Source: Candidatus Methylomirabilota bacterium (GTDB lineage: Bacteria > Methylomirabilota > Methylomirabilia > Rokubacteriales > CSP1-6). From it: a DNA stretch of 50,164 bases. The notes under the pieces are model-generated. The model made no database searches and was not told the DNA's origin. It saw only the letters and a program-made list of their open reading frames with translations. A program made the position numbers and the translations under genes. Below, piece after piece: positions 10,687-29,994 of this stretch (the stretch's first letter is position 1; each line of letters opens with the position of its first letter). Where the stretch lies: NCBI GenBank assembly GCA_035948165.1, contig DASZJM010000129.1, forward strand, positions 1 to 50,164, given 5' to 3'.

Positions 10687-10712
10687 GGCACCTCCTGAGG
10701 CGTCGCCCCGTC

Positions 10713-10889: not shown

Positions 10890-10904
10890 TGGCACATCAC
10901 TTGC
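10890..10904 (+). promoter_or_regulatory. Sigma-54 type -24/-12 promoter element upstream of the SPOR-protein gene
   Basis: Exact TGGCAC-atcac-TTGC (followed by GT). Only 14 nt to ATG 10919. Confidence 0.55.
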
Positions 10905-10918
10905 GTGCAGTCGTCGTC

Positions 10919-11839
10919 ATGCTCAGGCTCAAGGGAGAACCGGACGCCGACGACGCTCTGCCAGAGGACGAGGGCCGGTCCCGGGCGGTTGACCGCGACG
11001 AGACGGACGAGCTCACCGGCAGGGACGTTTTTCCGAATGCCGGGCAGGATCCCGGCCGGAGAGCCGCGGCCGACGACGACGAGGATGAGCGCTACGACCC
11101 CTGGAGGCCCGAGCGGACCTTCCCGCTGCGGGGCCTCGTCATCGCGGGAGCGGCCTTCGCTCCCACATTCTTGCTGATCTTCTTCGGCCTGCCCTACCTA
11201 GTGGACTCCGCAGCGCCGACCCGGACGCCGAGCGCGCCCGTCGCCACCGTCGTGCCGGAGCCCGATTTGAAGAGCTTCCCGCCACTCTCGGAGGCGGCCC
11301 GTGGCGACGCCCGTGCCGGCGCTTCGAATTCGCGGGGCGCGCCGGGCAACCGCACGACGGGCGATCTCTTCCGCAACAACGCGCCGCCGGCGCCGGTCCC
11401 CCCGGCACCGGTCCCGACAGTGCCGATCACGCCAGCGCCGATCCCAGAGGAGCCGAAGGTCGAGGAGCGCGCCGCCGCGGTCGCGCCGGAGCCGCCTCCG
11501 TCCCTGCCGCCCGCACGCCCGACTCCGACTCCGGCGGAACGGCCGGCCGCCCGCGAGCCCCGGGCGCCCGAGACCCCACGCGCGGCGGCGCTGCCGCCGC
11601 CCTCGGCGCCCGCCCCTACTCCCGCGCCGCCGGTGGTGCCCGAACCGCGCCGCGCCGCCCGCGAGTCTCGCGAGTGGACGCCGGCGGCCGCCTTCACGGA
11701 TCGCGCGGCGGCCGGACGGCTGGCGAGCAGCATCGAGAAACAGGGCTATCCCGTCGAGATCCGACAGGATGCCTCGTCCTCGAGGCCGTGGGTGGTGTGG
11801 ATCGGCGCCCAGCCTAGCGGCGGCTCGCGCCGCCGCTAG
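10919..11839 (+). CDS. SPOR-domain (septal peptidoglycan-binding) protein with TM segment and long Pro/Ala-rich linker
   Basis: C-terminal part of ORF 10067..11839. TM LVIAGAAFAPTFLLIFFGLPYL, a proline-rich linker, and C-terminal AAFTDRAAAGRLASSIEKQGYPVEIRQD...WVVWIGAQP, which is SPOR-like. The earlier part of the ORF is antisense to the ANTAR gene. Confidence 0.7.
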   Translation: MLRLKGEPDADDALPEDEGRSRAVDRDETDELTGRDVFPNAGQDPGRRAAADDDEDERYDPWRPERTFPLRGLVIAGAAFAPTFLLIFFGLPYLVDSAAPTRTPSAPVATVVPEPDLKSFPPLSEAARGDARAGASNSRGAPGNRTTGDLFRNNAPPAPVPPAPVPTVPITPAPIPEEPKVEERAAAVAPEPPPSLPPARPTPTPAERPAAREPRAPETPRAAALPPPSAPAPTPAPPVVPEPRRAARESREWTPAAAFTDRAAAGRLASSIEKQGYPVEIRQDASSSRPWVVWIGAQPSGGSRRR

Positions 11840-11849
11840 GCGGCGCGGT

Positions 11850-13235: not shown

Positions 13236-13303
13236 TGTTCGTCCCCTTTCGGGTGAGGGATGTGCGTCGCTGGCAAGCTCGATTGACACTCCGCGTCCGG
13301 ACT

Positions 13304-13318
13304 GCAATCGATGTGCCT
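13304..13318 (-). promoter_or_regulatory. Sigma-54-like -24/-12 element upstream of the NtrC-family activator gene
   Basis: Reverse strand reads AGGCAC-atcga-TTGCA (one mismatch, first base). 68 nt to ATG 13235. Confidence 0.45.
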
Positions 13319-13398
13319 CGAAATTTCCCGGTAAAAAAAGGTTCCGGCTCTGAGGCCACAAGTCCATTTCAAACTGCCGCTTTGCACCACGACCTGAA

Positions 13399-13444
13399 GG
13401 CTGGATCTGAGCCCCGGGATCCAGCCCTGCCGCCCGGGCGGCAG
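13399..13444. terminator. Tandem GC-rich hairpins downstream of the PPC-domain gene; T-tract present only on the + strand
   Basis: GGCTGGATC-tgagccccgg-GATCCAGCC (13399-13426), immediately followed by the perfect 18-bp palindrome CTGCCGCCCGGGCGGCAG (13427-13444), then gaagATTTTA. Confidence 0.5.
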
Positions 13445-13462
13445 GAAGATTTTACCGTGTAG

Positions 13463-13927
13463 TTACCACCCGGTGGCTGCGGTATCCCCCCAATCGAGGT
13501 CGATAAGGGCGAGACCGGTGACCGGGTCCGTCTTCCTCTGGAGCGTGGCCTGCTCCTCCACGAGGGTGACCTCGAGGGTCGGGTCCACGCTCCCCCCGAG
13601 CAGGTGCCCACCGAGCGCCCCTCCGTCCGACCGCCCGACGACCACGTGGGCGTGCACGCGAGGGCTCCCCTGGTCCAGGGCGATGTTGCCGATCAGCGAG
13701 ACGACCTCGACCTGCTCCCGGATGACCCGACGCCGGTAATCCCGACGGGCGTGGTCGAAGAAGCCCAGGGTCACCGCCGCGAACGCGCCGATGCCGGTCA
13801 GCGAGGCGGCACGGAGGTCGAAGCGCTTGGCCACGTCGGTCAGGGCCTCCACCGGATCGTCGCCCCGGTCGCAGACCAGGACGAAGGTGCGCCGGCCCCC
13901 CGTATCGCCCAGCTGCCGGATCTTCAC
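13463..13927 (-). CDS. PPC (DUF296) domain protein
   Basis: 154 aa. FVLVCDRGDDPVEALTDVAKRFDLRAASLTGIGAF...VEVVSLIGNIA...HAHVVVGRSDGGALGGHLLGGSV.PTLEV matches the PPC/DUF296 pattern. Confidence 0.75.
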   Translation of the reverse strand: MKIRQLGDTGGRRTFVLVCDRGDDPVEALTDVAKRFDLRAASLTGIGAFAAVTLGFFDHARRDYRRRVIREQVEVVSLIGNIALDQGSPRVHAHVVVGRSDGGALGGHLLGGSVDPTLEVTLVEEQATLQRKTDPVTGLALIDLDWGDTAATGW

Positions 13928-13941
13928 GGTGCGCGCTCCTC

Positions 13942-14427
13942 TCAGGCCCGCTCGGCCACCGCTTCCTTGTCGCGCTTCCGCAGCCCCACCAGACAGGTCA
14001 CCAGCACGCCGGTCATGACGGTGAGCAGGCCGAGCTCGATCATCGCGTAGCGGAAGGCGGACTCGCCCTGGTCCGCGAGAGTCCCGAACTCCGCGGTGAT
14101 GACCAGGATGCGCCGCACCCCCGCGATGAGGGCCACCAGCACGAACGGCTCGGGCACCAGCACGTGCTCCCGGAACGAGACCTGCACGGTGTAGAGGATC
14201 TCGATGATCATGAGGATCAGGAGCAGCTGGTCCAGCACCGCCACCACGCTCGGCGCGACCGCACCGCCCAAGAGGCCCCGGCCGAAGTGGACCCCCGCGT
14301 TCACGAGCAGGGCCGCGCCCCCCGCCGCGAGCACCACCCCGAGGCCCACGTAGAGCACGTCCTCGACCTTGGTGAACGCCTGCGCGATCCGCTCGCGCGC
14401 GGGCGCGCTCTGGCTCGTGCGGCTCAT
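13942..14427 (-). CDS. PsiE-like (phosphate-starvation-inducible E family) membrane protein
   Basis: Start at MSRTSQSAP (ATG 14427) within ORF 13942..14646. Four TM segments and LLLILMIIEILYTVQVSF...LVALIAGVRRILVIT, typical of the PsiE family. Confidence 0.6.
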   Translation of the reverse strand: MSRTSQSAPARERIAQAFTKVEDVLYVGLGVVLAAGGAALLVNAGVHFGRGLLGGAVAPSVVAVLDQLLLILMIIEILYTVQVSFREHVLVPEPFVLVALIAGVRRILVITAEFGTLADQGESAFRYAMIELGLLTVMTGVLVTCLVGLRKRDKEAVAERA

Positions 14428-14461
14428 CGCCCGACGCCCCGGAGCCCCCGCCGCCACCGGG

Positions 14462-14614
14462 TCACAGCCGCCCGGTGAGCACGAGGGCCAGCAGGATGAG
14501 GAGCGCCACCGTGAGCGCGCTGCTCGGGTAGTAGCCCCAGTCCCGGCTGTACGGCCACGCCGGAATCGCGCCGAGCGCCAGCACGACCAGGACCACGATG
14601 AGCACGAGCGGCAT
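14462..14614 (-). CDS. DUF3309-family small membrane protein (50 aa)
   Basis: MPLVLIVVLVVLALGAIPAWPYSRDWGYYPSSALTVALLILLALVLTGRL. The PxWPYSRxWGYYPS core is characteristic. RBS GGAGG upstream. Confidence 0.75.
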   Translation of the reverse strand: MPLVLIVVLVVLALGAIPAWPYSRDWGYYPSSALTVALLILLALVLTGRL

Positions 14615-14642
14615 GTCGAGATCGCCTCCGGCCCGGTACGGG

Positions 14643-14657
14643 GCAATCGCTGTGCCA
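14643..14657 (-). promoter_or_regulatory. Sigma-54 type -24/-12 promoter element upstream of the DUF3309/PsiE-like/PPC gene string
   Basis: Reverse strand reads exactly TGGCAC-agcga-TTGC. 28 nt to ATG 14614 with RBS GGAGG. Confidence 0.6.
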
Positions 14658-14752
14658 GCCGATGGGCACGCGCCGCCCGTCGCTAAGCGCTCGGAATTCG
14701 ACACGGCGGCGGAGTCCTCGACCCCGCGCCCGCGCCGGCCACGCGCGCGGCG

Positions 14753-14782
14753 CCGGTAAACGTTACCGGAGCGGCCCGGTAA
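14753..14782. promoter_or_regulatory. Perfect palindrome CCGGTAA-acg-TTACCGG plus a third CCGGTAA half-site (candidate activator or operator site)
   Basis: 14753-14769 is a 17-bp perfect inverted repeat, with a third half-site at 14776-14782. It lies 96-125 nt upstream of the -24 element at 14657 (minus strand) and about 40-55 nt upstream of the weak + strand element at 14808. Confidence 0.4.
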
Positions 14783-14807
14783 CGCCGACCGGACCGTCGC
14801 GTCTTTC

Positions 14808-14822
14808 TGGCGCGTGGCCCGC
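14808..14822 (+). promoter_or_regulatory. Weak sigma-54-like element (GG-N10-GC only) upstream of the TM-helix/treY/treZ string
   Basis: TGGCGC-gtggc-CCGC. The GG/GC invariants are correctly spaced but the -12 TT is missing. 57 nt to ATG 14880 with RBS GGAGG. Could easily be chance. Confidence 0.2.
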
Positions 14823-14879
14823 GTGGTACCGTGTGAACGACTTGCTGGCGTCGACCCTGCTCTTCTGGAGGCGCGGATC

Positions 14880-15584
14880 ATGACCGATATGTGGGGCGAT
14901 CTGGTGTGGGCCGCTCTCGGCGATCTCAAGACGAGGCTGATGCTCGTCCTCCCGGGAATCCTGGCGATGTTGACCCTGGCCGCGGTCGGGCTCGCCGGCG
15001 CGTGGATCAGCGCCCGCGTCGCGCGCCGGCTCGCGCAGGCGGTGGCCTTCGACCGCCGCGCGGAGGCGTGGGGCATCGTGGCCGCGCTCAACCGCGCGGG
15101 CGTGCGCAAGGCGCCCTCGCAGGTGCTGGGGCTCGTCGTCTTCTGGAGCGTGCTCGTGCTGTTCCTGCCGGTGGCCATCGACGCCCTCGCGATTCCCGGG
15201 ACCGGGCGCCTCACCGAGTTCGTCTTCTCGTGGGTCCCGCGCGTCATGGGCGCCGCCCTCATCCTGCTGGTGGGCTGGCTGGTCGCGAACTTCCTCGGCG
15301 AGGGCGCGCTCATCGCGGCGGTCAACGCCCGCCTGCCCGAGGCGCGGCTCCTGGCCCGCGCCATCCGCTGGGGCGTGCTGCTCTTCGCGAGCGCGACCGC
15401 GATCACTCACCTGGGCATCGGCAAGGAGATGGTGCTGGTCGCGTTCGGGATCACGTTCGGCGGGCTCATCTTCGCCCTCGCGCTGGCCTTCGGCCTCGGC
15501 GGGCGCGGCCTGGCCCGCCAGATCCTCGAGCGGCACATCCGCAGTCGCGAGCCGCACCCGCGCGAGACCCTGACCCACCTCTAG
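14880..15584 (+). CDS. Multi-pass membrane protein with conserved TM-helix repeats (resembles the N-terminal region of MscS-type channels)
   Basis: Start at MTDMWGDL within ORF 14814..15584. Repeated TM modules (LPGILAMLTLAAVGLAGAWISARVA; MGAALILLVGWLVANFLGEG; WGVLLFASATAITHLGIG). Only 4 nt before treY. Confidence 0.55.
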   Translation: MTDMWGDLVWAALGDLKTRLMLVLPGILAMLTLAAVGLAGAWISARVARRLAQAVAFDRRAEAWGIVAALNRAGVRKAPSQVLGLVVFWSVLVLFLPVAIDALAIPGTGRLTEFVFSWVPRVMGAALILLVGWLVANFLGEGALIAAVNARLPEARLLARAIRWGVLLFASATAITHLGIGKEMVLVAFGITFGGLIFALALAFGLGGRGLARQILERHIRSREPHPRETLTHL

Positions 15585-15588: not shown

Positions 15589-18500
15589 ATGATCGACGCC
15601 GGCGTGCTCCTCCAGCAAGCGGCGGCCGCGCTGCGCCACGAGCGCCGCGCGAGCTACCGCCTCCAGCTCGGGAGCGCGCTGGGCTTCGACGACGTGGCCG
15701 CCCTCGCGCCCTACCTGGACGCGCTCGGGGTCAGCGACGTCTACCTCTCGCCCTGCTTCCGGTGCGGCCCCGGCAGCTCCCACGGCTACGACGTCACCGA
15801 CCACAACGCGTTCAATCCCGAGCTCGGCAGCCCGGCCACCTTCGACCGGATGGCCGCCACCCTGTCCGCGCGCGGCCTCGGCCTCATCCTGGACGTGGTG
15901 CCGAACCACATGGGCATCGCGGGTGACGCCAACCCCTGGTGGCTCGACGTGCTCGAGAACGGCCCCGCCTCCCCGCGCGCCGAGTTCTTCGACATCGATT
16001 GGGCCCCGGCCAAGGCCGAGCTGCGCAATCGCGTGCTGCTGCCGATCCTGCCCGATCAGTACGGCCGCGTGCTCGAATCGCAGCAGCTCGCGCTCGAGTT
16101 CGTGGACGGCGCCTTCCACCTGCGGTACGCGGGCGCGCGCCTGCCGATCACCCCGCGCACCTACCCGCAGATCCTCACCGACGGGCTCGAGCCCCTGGCC
16201 GAGCGCCTCGGGCCGGAGGACCCCGGGCTCCAGGAGCTGCGCAGCATCCTGACCGCGATCGAGCATCTCCCCGGGCGCACCGAGACCGATCCGCGCCGGG
16301 TGGAGGAGCGCATGCGCGAGAAGGAGATCGTCAAGCGCCGCCTGCTCGCCCTCGTGAAGGAGTCGTCCGACATCCGGGAGCACATCGAGGAGACGGTGCG
16401 ACGGTTCAACGGGGTTCCCGGCGATCCGGCCTCCTTCGACGCGCTCGATCGGGTGCTCTCCGCGCAGACCTACCGCCTGGCCGACTGGCGCGTCGCGGGC
16501 GACGAGGTGAACTACCGCCGCTTCTTCGACGTGAGCCACCTCGCCGCGATCCGCATGGAGCGCCGCACCGTGTTCGACGCGACCCACCAGCTCGTCCTGC
16601 GCCTGGTCGGCGAGGGCAAGGTCACCGGGCTGCGCATCGATCACCCGGACGGCCTCTACGCGCCCGGCGAGTACTTCCGCCGCGTGCAGGAGGGCGCGCT
16701 GGTGGCCACCGCGCGGCGGCTGGTGCCCGAGCTGACCGGGCCGGAGGCGGAGGCGCTGGCCGCGCTCTACCGCACCCACGCGGCCGATCAAGCGGCCAGC
16801 CTGGAGGCCCGGCCGCTCTGGATCGCGGCCGAGAAGATCCTGGGCACGGACGAGCCCCTTCCGGGGTGGTGGGTGGTCGCCGGCACCACCGGCTACGATT
16901 TCCTCGCCAGCGTGAACGGGCTCTTCGTCGACCGCGGGACCTCGCGGCAGATGACCGCGCTCTACGCGCGGGTGGCCGGCGACGGCGCCCGCATGGCCGA
17001 TCTCACCTACGAGGCGAAGCGGCTCATCATGCAGGTCTCGATGGCGAGCGAGATCAATCAGCTCGGCTACCACCTCGACCGCATGTCCGAGCGTGACCGC
17101 CTCGCCCGCGACTTCACCCTGCCGAGCCTCGGGCGCGCGATCCGCGAGGTGGTGGCCGCCTTCGCGGTCTATCGCACCTACGTGGGCGACGACGGAAGCG
17201 ACGGCCCCGGTCCGCGCGATCGCGGCTACATCGAGTCCGCGGTCGCGGAGGCCAAGCGCCGCAACCCCACCGTGAACGTGTCGATCTTCGACTTCGTGCG
17301 CGACGTGCTGCTGCTGCGCCACCCGGAGCGGAGCGGATCCGACGAGCGCGCCGCGCGCCGCCACTTCGCGATGCGCTTCCAGCAGACCACCGGGCCGGTC
17401 ACCGCCAAGGGGGTGGAGGACACCGCCTTCTACCGCTACAACCGCCTGGTCTCGCTCAACGAGGTGGGCGGCGACCCCGCGCGCTACGGGGAGTCCGTCG
17501 CGGTGTTCCACGCGCGCAACCAGCAGCGGCTCGAGCGCTGGCCGGAGTCCATGCTCGCCACCTCGACCCACGACACCAAGCGCGGCGAGGACGTGCGCGC
17601 CCGCATCGACGTCCTCTCCGAGGTGCCCGACGCGTGGGCCGCCGAGGTTCGCCGCTGGCGCGGGATCGCCCGGCGCCTCAAGCGGCAAGTCGATGGCGAG
17701 GCCGCGCCCGACCGCAACGACGAGTACCTGCTCTACCAGACCCTGATGGGCGCCTGGCCCGCGCGCGACGAGGACGAGCCGCTCGCGACCGTCACCGATC
17801 GGCTGGTCGCCTACATGGAGAAGGCCACCAAGGAGGCGAAACGGCGCACGAGCTGGGTCAACCCGAGCGAGGGCTACGACGAGGCGATGCGCGGCTTCGT
17901 GCGGGCCCTGCTCGCCCCGGACGGCCCGTTCCTCGCCGCCTTCCGCCCCTTCCAGCGGCGCGTGGCCGCCCACGGGGCGGTCAACTCGCTCGCCCAGACG
18001 CTGCTCAAGCTCAGCGTCCCCGGCATGCCCGATCTCTACCAGGGCACCGAGCTGTGGGACCTCTCGCTGGTCGATCCGGACAACCGTCGCCCGGTGGACT
18101 TCGCGACGCGAGGGGCGCGCCTCGAGGCTCTGCGGGCCCGCATCGCGGCCCTCGAGGCCGCGGGCGGCGACGCCACCGGGCTCTGCGCCGAGCTGCTCAC
18201 CCAGTGGCCGGACGCCGGGGTGAAGCTCTACCTCACCCACCGAGCGCTCACCCTCCGGCGCGAGCGGGCCGCGCTCTTCGCCTCGGGCGCCTACCGCCCG
18301 CTCGAGACGAGCGGCACGCGCGCCGATCACCTGGTGGCGCTGGCCCGGACCGCCGGGGCGGACGCGGTGGTCACCGTGGTACCGCGCCTCACCGCGCGGC
18401 TCGGCGGGCTCACCGGCCGCATCCAGCTGGACGCGGCCACCTGGGAGCGGACCGCGGTCGTCCTCCCCGAGGAGCTCGCGGGCGCCTATCGCGACCGTCT

Positions 18501-18624
18501 CACCGGCCTCGGCGTGACGAGCGAGCGCCGCGACGGGGTCGCGGTGCTGCCCGCCGCGGCCCTCCTCGCCCGCTTCCCGGTCGCGCTCCTCGAGCGCGTC
18601 ACCGCCCCCGGTCCCGCCCGATGA
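15589..18624 (+). CDS. treY: Malto-oligosyltrehalose synthase
   Basis: 1011 aa. N-terminus SYRLQLGSALGFDDVAALAPYLDALGVSDVYLSPCF...SSHGYDVTDHN...ILDVVPNHMG plus the long TreY-specific middle and C-terminal regions. Confidence 0.9.
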   Translation: MIDAGVLLQQAAAALRHERRASYRLQLGSALGFDDVAALAPYLDALGVSDVYLSPCFRCGPGSSHGYDVTDHNAFNPELGSPATFDRMAATLSARGLGLILDVVPNHMGIAGDANPWWLDVLENGPASPRAEFFDIDWAPAKAELRNRVLLPILPDQYGRVLESQQLALEFVDGAFHLRYAGARLPITPRTYPQILTDGLEPLAERLGPEDPGLQELRSILTAIEHLPGRTETDPRRVEERMREKEIVKRRLLALVKESSDIREHIEETVRRFNGVPGDPASFDALDRVLSAQTYRLADWRVAGDEVNYRRFFDVSHLAAIRMERRTVFDATHQLVLRLVGEGKVTGLRIDHPDGLYAPGEYFRRVQEGALVATARRLVPELTGPEAEALAALYRTHAADQAASLEARPLWIAAEKILGTDEPLPGWWVVAGTTGYDFLASVNGLFVDRGTSRQMTALYARVAGDGARMADLTYEAKRLIMQVSMASEINQLGYHLDRMSERDRLARDFTLPSLGRAIREVVAAFAVYRTYVGDDGSDGPGPRDRGYIESAVAEAKRRNPTVNVSIFDFVRDVLLLRHPERSGSDERAARRHFAMRFQQTTGPVTAKGVEDTAFYRYNRLVSLNEVGGDPARYGESVAVFHARNQQRLERWPESMLATSTHDTKRGEDVRARIDVLSEVPDAWAAEVRRWRGIARRLKRQVDGEAAPDRNDEYLLYQTLMGAWPARDEDEPLATVTDRLVAYMEKATKEAKRRTSWVNPSEGYDEAMRGFVRALLAPDGPFLAAFRPFQRRVAAHGAVNSLAQTLLKLSVPGMPDLYQGTELWDLSLVDPDNRRPVDFATRGARLEALRARIAALEAAGGDATGLCAELLTQWPDAGVKLYLTHRALTLRRERAALFASGAYRPLETSGTRADHLVALARTAGADAVVTVVPRLTARLGGLTGRIQLDAATWERTAVVLPEELAGAYRDRLTGLGVTSERRDGVAVLPAAALLARFPVALLERVTAPGPAR

Positions 18625-20462
18625 CCGCGACCCCCACCGTCCGGCGCGCGCACCGCATGCCCTTTGGGGCTCTCCCGCAGGGCGACGGCGGCACCATGTT
18701 CCGGCTGTGGTCGCCGGGCGCGGACCGCGTCGAGCTCTGGCTGGAGGAGCCGAAGCGCGCGGTGCCGATGCCGCGCGACGCGGGCGGCTGGGCCGAGTAC
18801 GTGAGCCGCGAGGCGCCGCCCGGCACGCGCTATCGCTACCGCATCGACGGCGAGATGCTGGTGCCCGATCCGGCCGCCCGCTATCAGCCCGGCGACGTGC
18901 ACGGGGCGAGCGAGGTCGTCGATCCGCTCGCCTACGGCTGGCGCGACGGCGCGTGGGCCGGCCTGCCCCCCGAGCGGCTCGTCTTCTACGAGCTGCACGT
19001 GGGCACGTTCACGCCCGACGGCACCTTCCGCGGCGTGGCGGACCGGCTCGACCACCTGGCCTCGCTCGGGGTCACCGCGATCGAGCTGATGCCCGTCGCC
19101 GACTTCCCCGGCCGCTGGGGCTGGGGCTACGACGGCGTGCTCCTCTTCGCCCCCGAGGCGAGCTACGGGCACCCGGACGATCTCAAGGCCCTGGTGGACG
19201 GCTGCCACGCGCGCGGTCTCGCGGTCTTCCTCGACGTGGTGTACAACCACTTCGGCCCGGAGGGGAACTACCTCCACCGCTACGCCCCGGGCTTCTTCAC
19301 CCCACGCCACCGCTCGCTCTGGGGCGACGGCATCAACTACGACGGCCCGGGGGCCGAGATCGTCCGCTCCTTCATGATCCACAACGCGCTCTACTGGCTC
19401 GAGGAGTTCCACCTCGACGGTCTGCGCCTGGACGCGGTCAACGCGATCGTGGACGACTCGGCCGCGCATCTCCTGGTAGAGCTCGGGCGCGCGGTGGCCG
19501 ATGGACCCGGCCGCGAGCGCCCGGTGCACCTGGTCCTCGAGAACGGCGCCAACGAGGCGCGCTACCTCGAGCGCGCGGCGGATCGCCGCCCGCTCTACCA
19601 GGCCCAGTGGAACGACGACGCGCACCACGCGCTCCACGTGCTCCTCACCGGCGAGTCCGGCGGCTACTACGAGGACTACCAGCCTCCGCTGCCCCATCTC
19701 GGACGCTGCCTCACCGAGGGGTTCGCGTTCCAGGGCGAGCGCTCCGGGTACCGCGACGGTCTGCGCGGCGAGCCGAGCGGGCACCTGCCGCCGACCTCGT
19801 TCGTTGGCTTCCTGCAGAATCACGACCAGGTCGGCAACCGCGCGATGGGGGAGCGCATCACCGCGCTCGCCCAGGCGGACGCGGTCCGCGCGGCCACCGC
19901 GGTCCTCCTGCTCGCCCCCGCCCTGCCCCTGCTCTTCATGGGCGAGGAGTGGGCCGCCCCCGAGCCCTTCCTCTTCTTCAGCGACCTGGGATCCGACCTG
20001 GGGCCGTCGGTGGCGGAAGGCCGGCGCCGCGAGTTCGCGCGCTTCCCCGAGTTCGCGAGCCCCGCGATGCAGGAGCGCATCCCCGATCCCCAGGCCGCCA
20101 CCACGCGCGCGCGCTCCGTCCTCGACTGGGGCCGGCTCGCCGGGCCCGAGCACCAGGCCTGGCTCGCGCTCCACCGGACCCTCCTCCGGGTCCGCGCGGA
20201 GGCCATCGTGCCGCTGCTCGCGGCCGAGCCGACCCCGGCCGCTTCGTGGAAGGCGCTGGGCGAGACCGCGATCGAGATCGCGTGGAAGTTCCCGGCCGGC
20301 ACGCTGCGCCTGGTGGCGAACCTCGGGGCCGCTCCCATCGCCCATCCCGGCCCCGGTCCCGACTGGGGCCGGCGGCTCCACGCGCTGCTCCTGCCCGAGG
20401 GCGGCTGGCTGGAGCTGCCGCCGTGGAGCGCGGCGTTCTACCTCGCGGAGCCGGCGCGGTGA
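18621..20462 (+). CDS. treZ: Malto-oligosyltrehalose trehalohydrolase
   Basis: ATG 18621 overlaps the treY stop (ATGA). FRLWSPGADRVELWL...YRYRIDG...FYELHVGTFT...LGVTAIELMPV...GYDGV...FLDVVYNHFGPEGNYL...LDGLRLDAV (GH13). Confidence 0.9.
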   Translation: MTATPTVRRAHRMPFGALPQGDGGTMFRLWSPGADRVELWLEEPKRAVPMPRDAGGWAEYVSREAPPGTRYRYRIDGEMLVPDPAARYQPGDVHGASEVVDPLAYGWRDGAWAGLPPERLVFYELHVGTFTPDGTFRGVADRLDHLASLGVTAIELMPVADFPGRWGWGYDGVLLFAPEASYGHPDDLKALVDGCHARGLAVFLDVVYNHFGPEGNYLHRYAPGFFTPRHRSLWGDGINYDGPGAEIVRSFMIHNALYWLEEFHLDGLRLDAVNAIVDDSAAHLLVELGRAVADGPGRERPVHLVLENGANEARYLERAADRRPLYQAQWNDDAHHALHVLLTGESGGYYEDYQPPLPHLGRCLTEGFAFQGERSGYRDGLRGEPSGHLPPTSFVGFLQNHDQVGNRAMGERITALAQADAVRAATAVLLLAPALPLLFMGEEWAAPEPFLFFSDLGSDLGPSVAEGRRREFARFPEFASPAMQERIPDPQAATTRARSVLDWGRLAGPEHQAWLALHRTLLRVRAEAIVPLLAAEPTPAASWKALGETAIEIAWKFPAGTLRLVANLGAAPIAHPGPGPDWGRRLHALLLPEGGWLELPPWSAAFYLAEPAR

Positions 20463-21643
20463 TCACCCCCGGGGGGCTCACCGCGGGCGGCGGCCTTGGC
20501 CGCGATCGCGTCCCGGTACACCGCGAGCGTGCGCTCCGCGATGCGGTCCCAGGAGAAGTGCGCCTCGACGCGCCGGCGGCCGGCCTCGCCCATCCGGCGC
20601 GCGCGGGCCGGATCGGCGAGCGCGACGCGGAGCGCCTCCGCGAGCGCGGTCGGATCGCCCGGCGGGACGAGCCAGCCGGTCTCGCCGTCCACCACGACCT
20701 CGGGGATACCCCCGACGCGGCTCGCCACCACCGGGGTGCCGCACGCCATCGCCTCGAGGTTGATGAGGCCGAACGGCTCGTAGATCGACGGGCACACGAA
20801 CACGGACGCGTGGCTGTAGAGCTGCACGACCTCCGCGACCGGCAGCATCGCGTTGATCCAGCGCACGCGGGAGCGGCCGGCCACCGCGGCCTCGAGCCGG
20901 GCGGCCAGCTCCGGGGTATCGGGGCTGCTCGCGCAGAGCACCAGCGAGACGGCGTCGGGCAGCGCGCGGGCCGCCTCGAGCAGCGGGAAGATGCCCTTCT
21001 GCTCGCTGATGCGGCCGACGAAGAGCACGTACGGCTCGCGCACCCCGTGCCGCGCGAGGGCCTCCCGCTGCTCGGTCCGGCGGAACGCCTCCGCGTCGAC
21101 GCCGTTGTGGATCACCACCACCCGGTCCGGCTCCACCCGGAAGTGAACCAGGATGTCCTCCCGCATCTGGGCCGACACCGCGATCACGCGCTCCGCCCGC
21201 TCGACCGCGAGGCGCTCCGCCCAGGTCGACACCGCGTAGCCGGTGCCGAGCTGATCGGCCTTCCACGGCCGCAGCGGCTCCATGCTGTGGAGCGTGACCA
21301 CGAGCGGGAGGTCGTGGATCGCCTGCACCAGCATGCCTCCGAATCCCACGTACCACGTGTGGGTGTGGACGAGGTCGGCCGCGACCGGGTCGCGCGCCAT
21401 CGCGAGCCCGACCGAGAGCGCTTCCAGCGCGGGCGCGTACGCGACCTCCGGGCCGCCGTGGAGCCGCTCCCACGGGGCGTAGCCGCGCACGCTCAGGCGG
21501 GCCCCCGCGAGCGCCTGGTCGCCGAAGCAGCGCACCTCGACGGTGGCGCGGCGGGCGAGCGCGCGGCTCAGGTGGTCCACCACCACGCCGGCGCCGCCGT
21601 AGACGTGCGGCGGGTACTCGCGGCTCAGGAGCAGGATTCGCAT
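20438..21643 (-). CDS. glgM: GT4 glycosyltransferase of the actinobacterial-type GlgA/GlgM family (candidate maltose-1-phosphate synthase)
   Basis: MRILLLSREYPPHVYGGAGVVVDHLSRAL... with an intact EX7E motif in YEPFGLINLEAMACGTPVVAS. The GlgM call rests on genomic context with glgE. Convergent 25-nt overlap with treZ. Confidence 0.7.
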   Translation of the reverse strand: MRILLLSREYPPHVYGGAGVVVDHLSRALARRATVEVRCFGDQALAGARLSVRGYAPWERLHGGPEVAYAPALEALSVGLAMARDPVAADLVHTHTWYVGFGGMLVQAIHDLPLVVTLHSMEPLRPWKADQLGTGYAVSTWAERLAVERAERVIAVSAQMREDILVHFRVEPDRVVVIHNGVDAEAFRRTEQREALARHGVREPYVLFVGRISEQKGIFPLLEAARALPDAVSLVLCASSPDTPELAARLEAAVAGRSRVRWINAMLPVAEVVQLYSHASVFVCPSIYEPFGLINLEAMACGTPVVASRVGGIPEVVVDGETGWLVPPGDPTALAEALRVALADPARARRMGEAGRRRVEAHFSWDRIAERTLAVYRDAIAAKAAARGEPPGGDHRAGSAR

Positions 21644-21672
21644 CGACCTCGTCCTTGGGGAGAGCTTACCGC

Positions 21673-22335
21673 ATGAGCGAGACCCAGCCCTTCGTCTTCC
21701 TCGGCTGCCTCGACCTGAACGAGCTGCTGCCCCACGAGGCCCACGACGCCCGGGAGCTCGTCCAGCAGCTCGAGAAGGTGCCGGTCGAGTCGATCTTCTG
21801 CCACACGTCGGCGGCCCTCCTCCATCGCCCGGTGCTCGCGGAGGCGTACCCGAACGACTTCTCGCTGTGGGTGGGCACCGAGGTCCGCGACGTCCGCCTC
21901 GCGGAGCGGCTCGCCGCGGTGGACGCCTTCCACGCCGGCTCGATGGAGCGCGTGCGCGAGGAGCTCATCGCCACCATCTCCGATCACCTCCAGCACCTCG
22001 GCACCGCTCCGCCGCGCACCCAGGGCAAGCGCTTCCGCTTCTACCAGGTGCACCTGGTACCGGTGCCGACCGGGCACCAGGCCCGCACCCTCACCGAGTT
22101 CCGCGACGCGCTCGCGGAGGTCGACGTGAGCGCGCTCTTCTACCACACCATCGAGGCGCGCTATCGCGCGGGCCGCGGCCGGGGCGACTTCGCGGAGTGG
22201 GTCGGCGGGGTCCTCGCCCGTCCCGACCTGGCCGATCGGCTCGCCCACATCGATCCGCACGCGGGCAGCCTCGAGCGCATCCGCGATCGGCACCTGAGCG
22301 TGCTCAGCGACGCCATCGCCGGCGAGGCCGCCTGA
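21673..22335 (+). CDS. Uncharacterised protein, DUF5752-like by recollection
   Basis: MSETQPFVFLGCLDLNELLPHEAHDARELVQQLEKVPVESIFCHT... (220 aa). An alternative TTG start exists at 21655. The stop overlaps the next start (TGATG). Family name needs HMM confirmation. Confidence 0.6.
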   Translation: MSETQPFVFLGCLDLNELLPHEAHDARELVQQLEKVPVESIFCHTSAALLHRPVLAEAYPNDFSLWVGTEVRDVRLAERLAAVDAFHAGSMERVREELIATISDHLQHLGTAPPRTQGKRFRFYQVHLVPVPTGHQARTLTEFRDALAEVDVSALFYHTIEARYRAGRGRGDFAEWVGGVLARPDLADRLAHIDPHAGSLERIRDRHLSVLSDAIAGEAA

Positions 22336-23534
22336 TGGCCCCCGGCGCGCTGGTCAAGCTCGACGACTACCGCCAGGTCGCCCCCCGCGGCACGGTCGAC
22401 TTCCTCATGCGCATCGGCGAGCGCCTGCGCGGCAAGCGCCTCCTCCACGTGAGCGCGTCGCGCTACGGCGCGCTCGCCGAGAGCCTCGGCCGGGTGGTGG
22501 CGATCCTGAACGACCTGGGCGTCGAGACCACCTGGGAGATCACCATCGGCACCGCCGACTTCGACCAGGTGAGCCGCGCGGTGACCAAGGCGCTCGGGGG
22601 CACCGAGCAGGTCATCACCGAGGGCATGCTCGCGCGCCTGCGCGAGACCGGCATCGACAACGCCCGGCGCCTCCGCCTCGACGCCGACCTGGTGATGGTG
22701 CACGACGCGGCCCCGGTGGGCCTGGTGGAGCCGCGCGGGGAGACCGGCCGGTGGGTGTGGCGGTGCCACCAGGACCTCTCCTCGGCCCAGCCCCAGCTCT
22801 GGAACGCGCTGCGCCCGCTGGTCCAGCGCTACGACGCGGCGGTGTTCTCGCTCGCCCGCTTCGCGGCGCCGCTCTCCATCCCGCGCTTCATCGTCTATCC
22901 CGCGATCGATCCGCTCTCCGAGCGCAACCGGGAGATGAGCCGCAGCGAGCAGGCGCAGCAGATGGATCGGCTGCGGGTGCCGCGCGACAAGCCGATCCTC
23001 CTCCAGGTCGGGCCGTTCGAGCGCCAGCACGATCCGGCCGGGGTGATCAACGCCTACCGGCTCGTGAAGCGCCACCACGACGTCCGCCTCGTGCTGGCCG
23101 GGCCGCCCCCCGCCCCCGGCGGCGACGCCCTCGGCGACCTGCAGGAGGCGGCCTCCCACGACCCCGACATCTCGGTCATCCTGCTGCCGCCGGATCCCCA
23201 GACCGAGCTGAACGCGCTCGAGCGCGCCGCCACCATCGCGATCCAGAAGCCGCTGAAGGCCGATTTCACCCTGGAGGTGGCGACCGCGATGTGGAAGGGC
23301 AAGCCGGTCATCGGTACCATCGCGGGCGGCATCCCATTTCAGATGGTCGTCAACGTCACCGGGTATACCGTGGAGACCGTGGAGGGCGCCGCGTTCCGCA
23401 TCCGTCAGCTGTTGTCGAACCCCGAGCTCATCGGCCGGATGGGCGCGGCGGGGCGCGAGCACGTGCGCCGGAACTTCCTGGTGACCCGCCACCTGAGCGA
23501 CTACCTGGCGCTGCTCGCCCACCTGACCGGGTGA
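22335..23534 (+). CDS. TreT-like GT4 glycosyltransferase homologue lacking both EX7E glutamates (possible pseudo-enzyme)
   Basis: 399 aa. The C-terminal block ELNALERAATIAIQKPLKADFTLEVATAMWKGKPVIGTIAGGIPFQ closely resembles the trehalose glycosyltransferring synthase block ...REGFGLTVTEAMWKGKPVIG..., but with A309 and T317 at the E positions. The N-terminal HVSASRYGALAES stands in place of the Gly-rich HVNST..GGGVAE loop. Confidence 0.75.
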   Translation: MAPGALVKLDDYRQVAPRGTVDFLMRIGERLRGKRLLHVSASRYGALAESLGRVVAILNDLGVETTWEITIGTADFDQVSRAVTKALGGTEQVITEGMLARLRETGIDNARRLRLDADLVMVHDAAPVGLVEPRGETGRWVWRCHQDLSSAQPQLWNALRPLVQRYDAAVFSLARFAAPLSIPRFIVYPAIDPLSERNREMSRSEQAQQMDRLRVPRDKPILLQVGPFERQHDPAGVINAYRLVKRHHDVRLVLAGPPPAPGGDALGDLQEAASHDPDISVILLPPDPQTELNALERAATIAIQKPLKADFTLEVATAMWKGKPVIGTIAGGIPFQMVVNVTGYTVETVEGAAFRIRQLLSNPELIGRMGAAGREHVRRNFLVTRHLSDYLALLAHLTG

Positions 23535-24772
23535 TGGACACCGCGACCCTGCCCGACGAGGTCCAGGCGACGGTCGAGCGGCTCGGCAGCGCCGACGTCG
23601 TGATCGGCCTCGCCACCGCCGGCCCGATCCCCGCCCTCGCCGCGGTGGCGGCCGCGGTGCGCACCGGGCTCGACGCCCACTTCGCGGGCCAGGCCGCCGC
23701 GGTGGTCCACGTCGACCAGGCGCCGTCGGAGGCCACCGCCGCCGCGGTGACCGCGGCCCTCGGCGACCTGCGGGCGGTCTCGGTGCCCGCCCCGGGCGGT
23801 CACGGCGACGACGGGCTCGACTGGGCCTCCGCGGTGCGCGCGGTCCTCACGGTGGGCCGACGGCTCGAGGCGCGCGCGATCGTGATGCTCAACGCCGACC
23901 TGAGCAGCATGACCAGCGAGTGGCTCCGTGGCCTCGCCGTGCCGGTGCTCAAGGACGACTACGGCCTCATGCTGCCGCTCTACCGGCGCTACCGCTACGA
24001 CGGTACGCTCACCCAGGCCCTCGTGGTCCCGCTGATGCGGAGCCTCTTCGGTCGCCAGCTCGCGCACCCGCTCGCCGAGGAGTTCGCCTGCTCGGCCGCG
24101 GCGGCCGACTTCTTCCTCCAGCAGCCGATCTGGGAGAGCGAGCTCGGGCACCAGGGTCTCGAGTTCTGGATGCCCGCCGCCGCCATCGAGCAGGGGCTCA
24201 CGATCGGCCAGTCGGTGCTCGGGCCGCGCACGGTGGCCGCGGCGGCGCATCCGTCCGCGCCGCTCGGCCGCACGGTGGGCCGCGTGGCCGGCGCGCTCTT
24301 CGCCCTGGCCGACCGCGCGGAGAGCTTCTGGCTGGACATTCGCGGCTCCGAGCCGGTGGTGAGCTTCGGGGTGCCCCCCGAGCCCCTGCCCGGCGGCCCG
24401 CCGGTCGATCCCTCGCTGATGCAGGTGGGCTTCGTGCAAGGCGTGCGCGACCTGCTCCCGGTGTGGGAGCGCATCCTCGCGCCCGAGAACCTGGGCGAGG
24501 TGCTCGAGCTGAGCGATCGGCCGCTGGAGCGCTTCCGCTTTTCGGATCGCCTGTGGACCCGCGTGGTCTACGACTTCGTCCTCGCCTACCGCACCCGCGT
24601 GGTCTATCGCAGCCACGCGGCGCAGTCGCTGGCTCCTCTCTACCTCGGCCGCGCCGCCTCGGTGGTGCTGGAGACGCAGGGCCGGCCGCCGCTCGCCATG
24701 CTGCAGAGCGCGGCGCGGCTGGGCGGGATGTTCGAGGAGGAGAAGCCCTACCTGGTGGACCGGTGGCGATGA
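23534..24772 (+). CDS. GT-A-like glycosyltransferase-fold protein with degenerate motifs (family uncertain)
   Basis: 412 aa. ADVVIGLATAG...VVHVDQAPSEAT...IVMLNADLSS (NAD instead of DxD)...YGLMLPLYRRYRYDGTLTQ...LFGRQLAHPLAEEF. The start overlaps the previous stop (TGATG) and the stop overlaps the glgE start (ATGA). Confidence 0.55.
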   Translation: MDTATLPDEVQATVERLGSADVVIGLATAGPIPALAAVAAAVRTGLDAHFAGQAAAVVHVDQAPSEATAAAVTAALGDLRAVSVPAPGGHGDDGLDWASAVRAVLTVGRRLEARAIVMLNADLSSMTSEWLRGLAVPVLKDDYGLMLPLYRRYRYDGTLTQALVVPLMRSLFGRQLAHPLAEEFACSAAAADFFLQQPIWESELGHQGLEFWMPAAAIEQGLTIGQSVLGPRTVAAAAHPSAPLGRTVGRVAGALFALADRAESFWLDIRGSEPVVSFGVPPEPLPGGPPVDPSLMQVGFVQGVRDLLPVWERILAPENLGEVLELSDRPLERFRFSDRLWTRVVYDFVLAYRTRVVYRSHAAQSLAPLYLGRAASVVLETQGRPPLAMLQSAARLGGMFEEEKPYLVDRWR

Positions 24773-26751
24773 AGCCCGAGCGCCGCCCCATCGTCATCGA
24801 GCACGTCCGCCCCGCGGTGGACGACGGCCGGTATCCGGCCAAGCGCGTGGTGGGCGATACCCTCGCGGTCTCGGCGGACATCTTCAAGGAGGGGCACGAC
24901 CTGCTGGCCGCGCGCGTCTGCTACCGGCGGCGCGACGAGTCGGGCTGGCACGAGGCCCCGCTCCGCCTCGTCGACAACGACGGCTGGGGCGGCGCCTTCC
25001 GGCTCGAGGCCAACGCCCGCTACCTCTACACCGTGGAGGCCTGGACCGACGCCTTCGGCTCGTGGGGCGAGGAGATGCGGAGGCGCATCAAGGGCGGCCA
25101 GGCCGACCTCACGAGCGAGCTGCTCGAGGGCGCCGAGATGGTGCGGCGCGCGCGCGCCACCGTCTCCGGCGCCGACCAGGCCGCGCTCGCCCGCGCCCTC
25201 GAGCGTGTGGCGGGGGCGTCGTCGCAGGACGCGCGCCTCGACGCGCTGCTCGACGGCGATCTCCGCCAGCTCATGGCCCGCGTGGCGCCGCGGCCCGATC
25301 TCACCCGCTACGACCGCGAGCTGGAGGTGGTGGTCGACCGGCCGGAGGCCGGCTTCGCGGCGTGGTACGAGATGTTCCCGCGCTCGCAGGGCCGGCTGCC
25401 CGGGCGCCACGGCACCTTCGACGACTGCATCGAGCGGCTGCCGGACATCCGGCGGATGGGCTTCGACGTCGTCTACCTGCCGCCGATCCACCCGATCGGC
25501 CGCACCGCCCGCAAGGGGCCCGACAACGCGCTCGACGCCGGGCCCAGCGACCCGGGCAGCCCGTGGGCCATCGGCGGTCCCGAGGGCGGCCACACCGCGG
25601 TGCACCCCGAGCTCGGCGACCTCGAGACCTTTCGCCGCCTCGTGAAGAGCGCGCGGGGCCTGGGGCTCGAGATCGCGCTCGACTTCGCGATCCAGTGCTC
25701 GCCCGACCACCCGTGGGTGCGCGAGCATCCCGAGTGGTTCCACCGGCGCCCGGATGGGACGATCAAGTACGCGGAGAACCCGCCCAAGAAGTACCAGGAC
25801 ATCTACCCGATCAACTTCGCCACCGAGGCGTGGCCCGCCCTGTGGGACGCGCTGCTCGGGGTGGTGCGCTTCTGGATCGAGCAGGGGGTGCGGACGTTCC
25901 GGGTCGACAATCCCCACACCAAGCCGCTCGACTTCTGGGCGTGGCTCATCCGGCAAGTGCAGGACCGTGATCCGGACGTGATCTTTCTCTCCGAGGCCTT
26001 CACCCGCCCCAAGGTCATGCGGGCGCTCGCCAAGGCCGGCTTCACCCAGTCCTACACCTACTTCACGTGGCGGAACTTCAAGGAGGAGCTGACCGAGTAC
26101 CTGGAGGAGCTCACCCGGTCGGAGATGGTCGAGTACTTCCGCGGCAACTTCTTCGTGAACACCCCCGACATCCTCCCCGAGGTGCTCCAGCGCGGGGGCA
26201 CGCCCGCCTTCCGCATGCGGGCGACGCTCGCGGCCACGCTGTCCACCGTGTGGGGCATCTACAGCGGGTTCGAGCTGGGGGAGTCGGCGGCCCTGCCCGG
26301 CAGCGAGGAGTACCAGGGCTCGGAGAAGTACGAGATCCGGGTCCGCGACTGGGACGCGCCGGGCCACCTGAAGGACCACATCGCGCGGCTCAACGTCATC
26401 CGGCGCGAGAACCGTGCCCTGCACGCGATGCGCGGCCTCCGCTTCTACCCCTCGAGCAGCCCGCACGTGCTCTTCTACAGCAAGATGACCCCGGAGCGCG
26501 ACAACGTGATCCTGGTCGCGGTGAACCTCGATCCGTTCGCCACCCACGAGAGCACGCTCGAGATCCCGCTCGAGGAGATCGGCATCGCGGCCGACGAGAC
26601 CTACGAGCTGCACGAGCTGCTCGCCGACCAGCGGCGCCTCATCCGCGGCGGCCGGCACACCGTGAGCCTCGACCCGCGCACCGCCTCCGCCCACGTCTAC
26701 CGCCTCGGCCGCTGGCGCCGCCGCGAGCGGGACTTCGACTACTACGCGTGA
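24769..26751 (+). CDS. glgE: Alpha-1,4-glucan:maltose-1-phosphate maltosyltransferase
   Basis: 660 aa. MKPERRPIVIEHVRPAVDDGRYPAKRVVGDTLAVSADIFKEGHD...AWYEMFPRS...FDVVYLPPIHPIG...FRVDNPHTKP, typical of GlgE. Confidence 0.9.
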   Translation: MKPERRPIVIEHVRPAVDDGRYPAKRVVGDTLAVSADIFKEGHDLLAARVCYRRRDESGWHEAPLRLVDNDGWGGAFRLEANARYLYTVEAWTDAFGSWGEEMRRRIKGGQADLTSELLEGAEMVRRARATVSGADQAALARALERVAGASSQDARLDALLDGDLRQLMARVAPRPDLTRYDRELEVVVDRPEAGFAAWYEMFPRSQGRLPGRHGTFDDCIERLPDIRRMGFDVVYLPPIHPIGRTARKGPDNALDAGPSDPGSPWAIGGPEGGHTAVHPELGDLETFRRLVKSARGLGLEIALDFAIQCSPDHPWVREHPEWFHRRPDGTIKYAENPPKKYQDIYPINFATEAWPALWDALLGVVRFWIEQGVRTFRVDNPHTKPLDFWAWLIRQVQDRDPDVIFLSEAFTRPKVMRALAKAGFTQSYTYFTWRNFKEELTEYLEELTRSEMVEYFRGNFFVNTPDILPEVLQRGGTPAFRMRATLAATLSTVWGIYSGFELGESAALPGSEEYQGSEKYEIRVRDWDAPGHLKDHIARLNVIRRENRALHAMRGLRFYPSSSPHVLFYSKMTPERDNVILVAVNLDPFATHESTLEIPLEEIGIAADETYELHELLADQRRLIRGGRHTVSLDPRTASAHVYRLGRWRRRERDFDYYA

Positions 26752-26882
26752 GATGAGATGCTTTCTCGCTTACCCGCCCACCCACGAGCGTCCGGGGCAG
26801 TGGCTTGGCGAGGTGCAGCCGAAGGCGAGCCGAGCGGATACATAATGAAGCTTCCGGTGTCAGCCCACTAAGCGAGGCCCAG

Positions 26883-29974
<3,092 letters not shown>

Positions 29975-29994
<20 letters not shown>

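Follow-up and report, generated by a model that had tools for sequence, protein, structure and literature searches.

Three genes joined to glgE in a Methylomirabilota lineage are a degenerate form of a conserved OrfY, TreT and glycosyltransferase module

What might two glycosyltransferase homologues and a protein of the DUF5752 family be doing in one operon with the maltosyltransferase gene glgE? The question is raised by a 50,164-nucleotide stretch of DNA from a Candidatus Methylomirabilota bacterium (contig DASZJM010000129.1 of assembly GCA_035948165.1; hereafter the window), in which three genes, here called g1, g2 and g3, lie directly upstream of glgE. The toxicity of its intermediate maltose-1-phosphate makes the GlgE pathway a drug target in mycobacteria. 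The regulation of its flux and the way in which it is primed are not yet fully understood (PMC11046441). We find that the trio is a lineage-specific degenerate form of a conserved module of trehalose/α-glucan gene neighborhoods, made up of an OrfY/DUF5752 protein, a family 4 glycosyltransferase (GT4) of the TreT clade and a protein with the fold of mannosylglycerate synthase (MGS) and GpgS. With middling confidence, we read g2 and g3, together with OrfY, as a putative non-catalytic pseudo-glycosyltransferase accessory module of the GlgE pathway that is maintained by selection.

The window, which comes from the Methylomirabilota (Rokubacteria), has about 72% GC, and genes were called from the GC content of third codon positions (GC3), which is 0.92–1.0 in the true frame; the shifts of the GC3 frame coincide exactly with the proposed boundaries of g1, g2, g3 and glgE. 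Reading of the junctions confirmed the overlaps on which the original prediction of a coupled trio had been built, TGATG between g1 and g2, TGATG between g2 and g3, and ATGA where the start of glgE overlaps the g3 stop. Such short overlaps are common in GC-rich operons and by themselves prove little, but the g3–glgE ATGA junction is kept in most related loci, and in the sub-clade of the window the trio is translationally coupled to glgE. The overlaps had also been supposed to run on through glgE, treS and mak; treS and mak do overlap, while glgE and treS are separated by 53–94 nt, according to which treS start is used.

The first gene, g1, belongs to the DUF5752/OrfY family by every measure applied. 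Its product scores 177.7 bits with PF19027 (DUF5752; cut-off 23), over model positions 2–207 of 208, it is homologous to OrfY of Thermoproteus (PDB 4CSO; E = 3.5e-22 with the single sequence and 5.2e-38 with a profile, over residues 6–213 of 216), and its neighbor is a TreT-type gene. The protein consists of two tandem repeats of about 100 amino acids, the N-terminal and C-terminal halves being 37% identical (E = 9e-13). The statement that g1 is without known function was half right: the searchable literature yielded no papers on DUF5752 and nothing relevant on OrfY, but the family has a solved structure and its pairing with TreT is widespread.

The second gene, g2, is TreT-like, as had been proposed, and encodes a full-length homologue of TreT, the trehalose glycosyltransferring synthase (EC 2.4.1.245). 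It aligns with the TreT structures 6zj4 (E = 2.7e-85) and 2xa2 (E = 3.5e-68), is 40–45% identical to characterised TreTs, carries the TreT-specific N-terminal domain PF21269 (TreT_GT1, 109 bits against a cut-off of 27) as well as Glycos_transf_1, and is nested inside the TreT tree. It stays below the equivalog level of NF041139 (TreT_Thcocales, 237.7 bits against a cut-off of 775), although this model was built for the Thermococcales, so that the shortfall alone is weak evidence. TreT-like proteins were aligned to the TreT of Thermoproteus uzoniensis, whose numbering is used here, and read at the GT4 donor-site residues R221, K226, E307 and E315, the last two being the glutamates of the EX7E motif; Arg, Lys and Glu are important in these GT-B enzymes (PMC11046441). 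All four are replaced in g2 (R221P, K226H, E307A and E315T) and the N-terminal glycine loop GGG reads YGA, so that the Arg/Lys pair that binds the diphosphate, the EX7E pair and the glycine loop are all missing. The window clade differs from catalytic TreTs almost exclusively at the donor site (the glycine loop, R221, K226, E259, Q294, E307, G308, G310 and E315), the N-domain residues H117, D118, R128, W133, W135, R136, D140, W149 and R153 are kept in g2, and about 80% of the columns conserved among TreTs are still conserved there. As an internal control, the window GlgM, which is also a GT4 protein, keeps R, K, E and E (VGRISEQKG, YEPFGLINLEA).

The third gene, g3, found no match in direct searches of Pfam, NCBIfam or the sequences of the PDB, and was placed in its family from profiles and its predicted fold. 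An exhaustive HMMER search gathered relatives in 1477 representative clusters. An AlphaFold2 model computed from a 117-sequence alignment has a mean predicted local distance difference test score (pLDDT) of 95.8 (a single-sequence model, at 36.7, was discarded), and its best Foldseek matches are the Rhodothermus mannosylglycerate synthase structures 2y4j and 2bo4 (template modelling scores 0.69/0.75 over the whole length, about 410 columns, E = 7e-13), followed by GpgS, which is matched in the GT-A domain only. The model thus predicts a GT-A Rossmann-like domain and a C-terminal helical domain, as in mannosylglycerate synthase, in keeping with the GT-A assignment first made. The g3 family profile matches GpgS (E = 7.5e-9) and aligns with it motif by motif. 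The window g3 itself does not match PF21969 (MGS_GT) or PF00535 (GT2), which several of its relatives do (P0326 at 103 bits, P0299, P0257, P0280 and the g3-family protein of locus L042). Some JGI records name close homologues "glucosylglycerate synthase"; the cluster members among the canonical relatives have generic names, "glycosyltransferase" and, in one case, "glucosylglycerate synthase".

Mapped onto the GpgS motifs through the family hidden Markov model (HMM), the canonical relatives of g3 have all the nucleotide- and metal-binding motifs expected of the MGS, GpgS and glucosylglycerate synthase (GgS) type, and the window g3 fails the same test: the Asn of PxxN is Gly, DGSD is DQAPSE, GKG is DWA, DxD is NAD and the metal-binding His is Val. 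On the acceptor side, Y150, R152, G157, T160 and E183 (the YxR and G-x-T motifs and the Glu of GGE) are retained and are invariant in the window clade. That both transferase homologues have eroded motifs was therefore seen correctly at the outset; the donor site of g2 has P/H/A/T, and g3 has NAD, no GKG lysine and no metal-binding His. Since g2 fails the catalytic-residue test for TreT and g3 the motif tests for MGS and GpgS, we file both as degenerate relatives of these enzymes and, to judge from their residues, not as members by function. In the wider g3 family, P0283 (1061 aa), P0257 (622 aa), P0299 and P0326 include fusions to Usp, TrkA_N or extra GT2/MGS_GT domains, and the Usp and TrkA_N fusions hint at stress- or ion-linked regulation in that wider family.

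To see how far the arrangement extends, DUF5752 alignments were searched against one genome per species, and the loci, chosen by g1 similarity as the best 80 of 460 and the best 80 of 432 matches, were annotated with HMMs of g1, g2 and g3 and with the GlgE-pathway proteins of the window. Among these loci 126 distinct TreT-like genes adjoin a DUF5752 gene. In 73 of them g3 follows immediately downstream, and glgE lies within a flank of about 7 kb in 62 of the 73, whereas it does so in 4 of the 53 loci that hold the pair with no adjacent g3; a further nine trio loci show only treS, mak, glgM or treY/treZ, often on truncated contigs. It is g3, then, and not the OrfY–TreT pair, that tracks with glgE. 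The pair itself is found in many phyla including archaea, the pair-only loci coming from Deltaproteobacteria, Acidobacteriota, Zixibacteria, Margulisiibacteriota, Hydrogenedentota, Thermoplasmata and others, and four Thermoproteus loci have orfY directly followed by treT, as in the window, with no g3 within 6 kb.

A lack of synteny between the trio and glgE in other genomes had been named beforehand as one finding that would refute the idea of a module; strong synteny with glgE, treS and mak was found, across two phyla and in three gene orders. Type A, that of the window, is g1–g2–g3–glgE; type B, in other Methylomirabilota (NC10), is glgE–treS–glgM–mak–g1–g2–g3; and type C, in Nitrospira including the complete genome of N. 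moscoviensis, is glgC–treY–g1–treS–g2–g3, one open reading frame (ORF), glgE. Close homologues, with identities as high as 99%, are found in metagenome bins of Methylomirabilota/Rokubacteria, and the gene order from treY to mak is identical in about 30 related loci. The trio TreTs form one clade of Nitrospirota and Methylomirabilota sequences, in which type A makes up a monophyletic group, with type B as its sister, in a neighbor-joining tree without support values. The trio had been described as inserted upstream of glgE; the adjacency is real, but the module is old, is not specific to this locus and was moved beside glgE in one sub-clade. A recent horizontal insertion was also considered and is not supported, since the trio has a GC content of 0.73–0.75 and a skew like those of its flanks and the gene order is the same in the approximately 30 related loci.

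The state of the donor sites follows these arrangements. With residues at the four TreT positions assigned by motif anchoring, the complete TreTs that have no adjacent g3 are all RKEE, except for three trio-type sequences at contig ends. Nitrospira trio TreTs are mostly RKEE, with some PKEE or HTEE, and those of type B are PKEE or ATEE. A distance rule scored 19 loci as those in which glgE immediately follows g3, and 18 of them have lost both EX7E glutamates and R/K; the remaining one (Nitrospirota, L061) is RKEE and has glgE about 850 nt downstream of g3. The eroded variants are PHAT (the window), PHAS, PHST, RHTA, PHTA, PQTA, PQAS, DQAC and DQTC, and this variety of replacements points to a constraint relaxed at exactly these donor-site positions. 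The g3 proteins show a similar gradation. Where g3 is near but not adjacent to an intact TreT (n = 9), the Asn and DGSD are kept, GKG has K or R, and DxD and His are mostly kept. Adjacent to an intact TreT in Nitrospira (n = 23), Asn and DGSD are kept, R replaces the lysine in 22, D-x-N is found in 23 of 23, and the His is kept or is Gln in most. Beside a TreT in which R/K is changed (n = 26), Asn and DGSD are mostly kept, R is present in 24, the second Asp of DxD is lost in 23, and the His is mostly Leu or Val. The window clade (n = 21) has Gly for Asn, D-[AT]-[PAG]..E for DGSD, Trp for the lysine (D-W-A), N-A-D for DxD and Val or Ile for His.

Donor-site residues, then, have been lost progressively and in parallel in the two transferases of the window lineage, with fold and acceptor-side residues retained, and the genomes in which both homologues have lost their nucleotide side are only those in which the trio is directly coupled to glgE. 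The ancestor was probably an OrfY–TreT pair for trehalose synthesis that gained a glucosylglycerate-synthase-like partner. Because the Nitrospira trio has an intact TreT site, the suggestion that the two homologues might be non-catalytic holds for the lineage of the window and not for the module as a whole.

The trio is a real conserved unit, as had been claimed, and its genes are held by selection. Pairwise Nei–Gojobori ratios of nonsynonymous to synonymous substitution (dN/dS) between the window and nine close loci are 0.07–0.21 for g1, 0.13–0.22 for g2 and 0.10–0.29 for g3, against 0.17–0.27 for treZ and 0.18–0.23 for glgE. All three genes are under purifying selection and are as constrained as the surrounding enzymes. 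g2 and g3 combine the loss of residues essential in active relatives with purifying selection and, in the g3 model, an intact fold, as would be expected of candidate pseudoenzymes.

Several of the loci have features of their own. In four type B loci (L080, at 8111–9999, and L097, L144 and L152, at about 7000–8900) the PKEE trio is immediately followed by a second, more divergent OrfY–TreT pair that is RKEE, which suggests a duplication and subsequent functional divergence. In L042, a Methylomirabilota locus, positions 953–14643 hold a histidine kinase, a sigma-54 response regulator, OrfY, an intact TreT, OtsA (GT20), two ORFs and a canonical g3-family gene that has all the GpgS-like motifs; this resembles a compatible-solute locus and is a possible ancestral context of the trio. 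The two conserved ORFs between otsA and g3 in this locus (339 and 403 aa, at 10655–12896), and the one between g3 and glgE in N. moscoviensis (L075, 11925–12806; 251 aa scanned), gave no Pfam match and may be further members of these clusters. A set of SMAG contigs (L005, L006, L009, L010, L011, L030 and L032) with clusters 76–92% identical to the Rokubacteria one carry labels as divergent as Nitrosotalea (an archaeon), Verrucomicrobiia, Dormiibacterota, Acidoferrum, Deferrimicrobiaceae and Limnocylindria, and are most likely mis-binned. In the long-read bins L008, L016 and L038, treY, treZ, glgM, g3 or glgE is split into several shorter tblastn pieces, suggesting frameshifts, assembly errors or real disruptions.

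Around the trio the window holds glgE together with treS and mak and with glgM, the combination by which a GlgE-pathway cluster is recognised (glgE with treS plus mak and/or glgM), and profile matches bore out the identities first given to glgE, treS and mak (Table 1). The order of the cluster is a sigma-54-dependent response regulator and a PsiE-like gene (both on the reverse strand), an MscS-like gene, treY, treZ, glgM (reverse), g1–g2–g3, glgE, treS, mak and a superoxide dismutase gene. No glgB or glgC was found among the confident coding regions scanned in the window, and glgB is possibly elsewhere in the genome. GlgM is mostly confined to Actinobacteria according to a 2024 Chem Rev review; most loci of types A and B have a glgM gene.

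The genes glgM and g1 are divergent, with a spacer of 29 nt (21644–21672) between their start codons. With so short a spacer, either both promoters lie inside the neighboring coding sequences or the trio is transcribed from farther upstream. No sigma-70-like sites or terminators above chance were found in a scan of 14–31 kb. The sigma-54 consensus TGGCAC-N5-TTGC occurs eight times in the window at one mismatch or fewer, against 2.25 expected, a number reached in none of 100 shuffles, and one of the exact sites is at the start of the PsiE-like gene; no such site was found upstream of the trio in the window scan. The MscS-like gene lies directly 5' of treY, whose start it overlaps. It brings to mind the msc-gt-tpsp operon of Thermoproteus tenax, and it suggests that the cluster as a whole serves in osmotic stress.

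Table 1. Genes and sigma-54 consensus sites located in the window, with the evidence for each assignment.
Feature	Position	Strand	Evidence and remarks
g1	21673-22335	+	ATG 21673; stop TGA 22333-22335; 220-aa DUF5752/OrfY-family protein
g2	22335-23534	+	ATG 22335 in TGATG; stop TGA 23532-23534; 399-aa TreT-clade GT4 homologue
g3	23534-24772	+	ATG 23534 in TGATG; stop TGA 24770-24772; 412 aa, MGS/GpgS-like GT-A fold (predicted)
glgE (maltose-1-phosphate:alpha-1,4-glucan maltosyltransferase)	24769-26751	+	start ATG 24769; stop ends at 26751; GlgE_dom_N_S 182.8 bits, GLGE_C, Alpha-amylase
treS (trehalose synthase/maltose alpha-D-glucosyltransferase)	26805-28556	+	start TTG 26805 or ATG 26846; TIGR02456 931 bits, over cut-off
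mak/pep2 (maltokinase)	28531-29994	+	TIGR02457 333.5 bits (cut-off 375), Mak_N_cap; overlaps treS end
glgM-like GT4 (maltose-1-phosphate synthase type)	20438-21643	-	TIGR02149 glgA_Coryne 501 bits, cut-off 302
treY (malto-oligosyltrehalose synthase)	15589-18624	+	TIGR02401 943.5 bits
treZ (malto-oligosyltrehalose trehalohydrolase)	18621-20462	+	TIGR02402 684.8 bits
MscS-like membrane protein	14760-15584	+	PF05552 MS_channel_1st_1 32.1 bits (TM-helix match); coding frame by GC3
sigma-54-dependent response regulator	11850-13451	-	window cluster
PsiE-like gene	13942-14682	-	window cluster
sigma-54 consensus sites, exact	1849, 10713, 10890, 14643, 30200
sigma-54 consensus sites, one mismatch	9928, 13304, 30379

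In the cycle that these genes would serve, TreY and TreZ turn glucan into trehalose, TreS, Mak and GlgE lead back to glucan, and GlgM feeds in from ADP-glucose. On the reading that we prefer, g2 and g3 would no longer transfer sugar from nucleoside diphosphate (NDP)-glucose. Produced along with OrfY and GlgE, they would be non-catalytic subunits that bind ligands or serve as scaffolds and so tune this TreS–Mak–GlgE/TreY–TreZ trehalose-to-α-glucan cycle. They might, for instance, act as sensors of trehalose, glucose or solutes of the glycerate type, or they might organise the enzymes by which maltose-1-phosphate is made and consumed.

Comparison with known systems shows what is shared and what is new. 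The OrfY–TreT pair was reportedly described for T. tenax by Kouril et al. in 2008. g1 and g2 are full-length homologues of OrfY (structure 4CSO) and TreT (structures 6ZJ4 and 2X6Q) and lie in the same orfY–treT order, but the Thermoproteus pair and most bacterial pairs are RKEE-intact and have neither g3 nor GlgE genes nearby; in the window there is a third gene, g3, the trio is joined to glgE and its TreT homologue has a destroyed donor site. The g3 model shares the two-domain architecture and predicted fold of mannosylglycerate synthase (GT78; Rhodothermus marinus, 2BO4/2Y4J; template modelling scores as above), but the window protein is 12–13% identical to it and lacks its lysine, the first Asp of DxD and the metal-binding His. 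Its likeness to GpgS (GT81) lies in the motif-by-motif profile alignment and in canonical relatives that carry N, DGSD, GKG, DxD and His, and its relationship to the GgS of Persephonella marina in the JGI names only. The GlgE operons of actinomycetes and Pseudomonas (glgE–treS–pep2–glgB, with a TreS:Pep2 complex) likewise cluster genes of the pathway, as the window does with glgE, treS, mak, glgM, treY and treZ; they differ in that the window has no glgB or glgC among the scanned genes and has a GlgM outside the Actinobacteria, and to our knowledge none of the trio genes occurs in the operons described. The literature that could be searched on Rokubacteria, Nitrospira and TreT gave no description of the trio or of its link to glgE, and the Nitrospira marina paper does not mention it; the protein families are familiar ones, and neither their arrangement nor the erosion of both transferases is described there.

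There is precedent for non-catalytic subunits in trehalose metabolism. A GT4 protein of T. tenax has no trehalose-6-phosphate synthase activity of its own and activates TPSP through a complex, its gene lying in an operon with a mechanosensitive channel (PMC3634074), and catalytically inactive regulatory TPS/TPP homologues are known from yeast and plants (PMC3634074). The T. tenax TPSP–GT system, yeast Tsl1 and Tps3 and the plant class II TPS proteins resemble what we propose in that glycosyltransferase homologues of a trehalose pathway, themselves non-catalytic, activate or regulate a partner through a complex, and in the window, too, an MscS-like gene accompanies the pathway genes. The activator in T. 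tenax, however, is a PimA-like GT4 protein and no homologue of TreT or MGS, and its partner is an OtsA/OtsB fusion rather than GlgE, so that the analogy is a functional one only.

Several points weigh against a non-catalytic accessory module. A protein that lacks its canonical residues need not have lost catalysis. The loci compared were picked by similarity and are not phylogenetically independent; most are from metagenome bins, some of them evidently mis-binned. The neighbor-joining tree carries no support values. At a GC3 of about 0.95 dS is probably underestimated and absolute dN/dS is inflated in every gene, so that the values can be relied on only when genes are compared with one another. 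One can conceive of a smaller phosphorylated donor for both proteins, judging from what they keep, in g3 the second Asp of DxD and the R/T/E residues and in g2 R224 and a His at position 226. Finally, the PDB title of 4CSO, "OrfY protein, transcription factor", suggests gene regulation for g1.

The conceivable smaller donor leads to the idea that g2 and/or g3 are still enzymes of changed chemistry, using a non-nucleotide donor such as maltose-1-phosphate or glucose-1-phosphate, or acting as trehalose transglycosylases; the product might be a new glycoside, or primers for GlgE that are capped with trehalose or glycerate. The losses are indeed restricted to the side of the nucleotide and the metal, and both proteins keep the residues that face the acceptor and the sugar; g3 retains Asp122 and the R/T/E motif, and g2 retains R224 and has His at position 226; the genes are joined to glgE, whose own donor is maltose-1-phosphate; and purifying selection on both is strong. 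The residues at the former catalytic positions nevertheless vary among close relatives, which looks like relaxation and not like a newly optimised site. The Arg/Lys pair missing from g2 is still required by retaining GT-B enzymes that use sugar 1-phosphates, such as fungal trehalose phosphorylase, and we know of no precedent for a nucleotide-independent GT-A enzyme of the MGS/GpgS type. Changed chemistry is the main rival of our reading, though we regard it as unlikely.

A bolder proposal, to which we give still less credence, is that the trio with its dead transferases is an unrecognised complex that docks onto GlgE, and perhaps onto TreS–Mak, and either gates α-glucan synthesis or forms a nucleotide-independent transferase system. 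If the gating form were true, α-glucan synthesis would respond to trehalose or glycerate-type solutes and toxic maltose-1-phosphate would thereby be controlled; if the transferase form were true, maltose-1-phosphate would be turned into trehalose- or glycerate-capped primers, which would explain how GlgE-made glucan is initiated in these phyla.

That g2 and g3 are ordinary TreT and GgS enzymes, in a compatible-solute operon that merely neighbors glgE, is improbable. The full length of g2 and its identity to characterised TreTs, the "glucosylglycerate synthase" label of some g3 homologues, the canonical-motif relatives in solute-type clusters with OtsA such as L042, and the MscS-like gene and treY/treZ, which point to an osmotic-stress locus, would all fit such a view, but g2 lacks all four GT4 donor-site hallmarks and the glycine loop and falls far below the equivalog cut-off, while in g3 the GKG lysine, the leading Asp of DxD and the His that binds the metal are gone, and the protein misses the MGS_GT and GT2 models that its canonical relatives match. 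Equally doubtful is transcriptional control, in which OrfY would be a DNA-binding regulator and the dead transferases sugar-sensing co-regulators of glgE–treS–mak expression. It would accord with the title of 4CSO and with the position of g1, first in the operon and always paired with a TreT-type gene; against it, a Pfam scan of g1 found no helix-turn-helix or other DNA-binding domain, no publication on OrfY function was found in the searchable literature, window scans gave no promoter- or operator-like signal near the trio, and stoichiometric coupling of translation with an enzyme gene is seen more often for the subunits of a complex than for regulators. Decay of g2 and g3 into functionless pseudogenes, which the loss of catalytic motifs in both might suggest, is rejected as extremely unlikely: among about 40 related loci, 52–96% identical, nearly all have unbroken ORFs, split matches being seen in L008, L016 and L038, with dN/dS like that of treZ and glgE, undiminished in-frame GC3, TreT-conserved columns largely kept in g2 and a confidently modelled fold in g3.

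We therefore return to the pseudo-glycosyltransferase module as the reading that we favor, and to what the trio means. A conserved and selected module of three proteins is wired into the GlgE pathway in nitrite-oxidising Nitrospira and in soil Rokubacteria, both abundant environmental phyla. Automatic annotation will name genes like g2 and g3 "trehalose synthase" and "glucosylglycerate synthase", and metagenome studies would wrongly count them as compatible-solute capacity. The loci also form a natural series, from an intact TreT in most Nitrospira loci, through a partly altered one in one group of Methylomirabilota, to a TreT and a g3 that are both fully eroded in the clade of the window. This series gives testable material for the route from glycosyltransferase to pseudoenzyme, for the role of OrfY/DUF5752 and for the possibility that bacteria, like yeast and Thermoproteus, may use non-catalytic subunits in trehalose and α-glucan metabolism.

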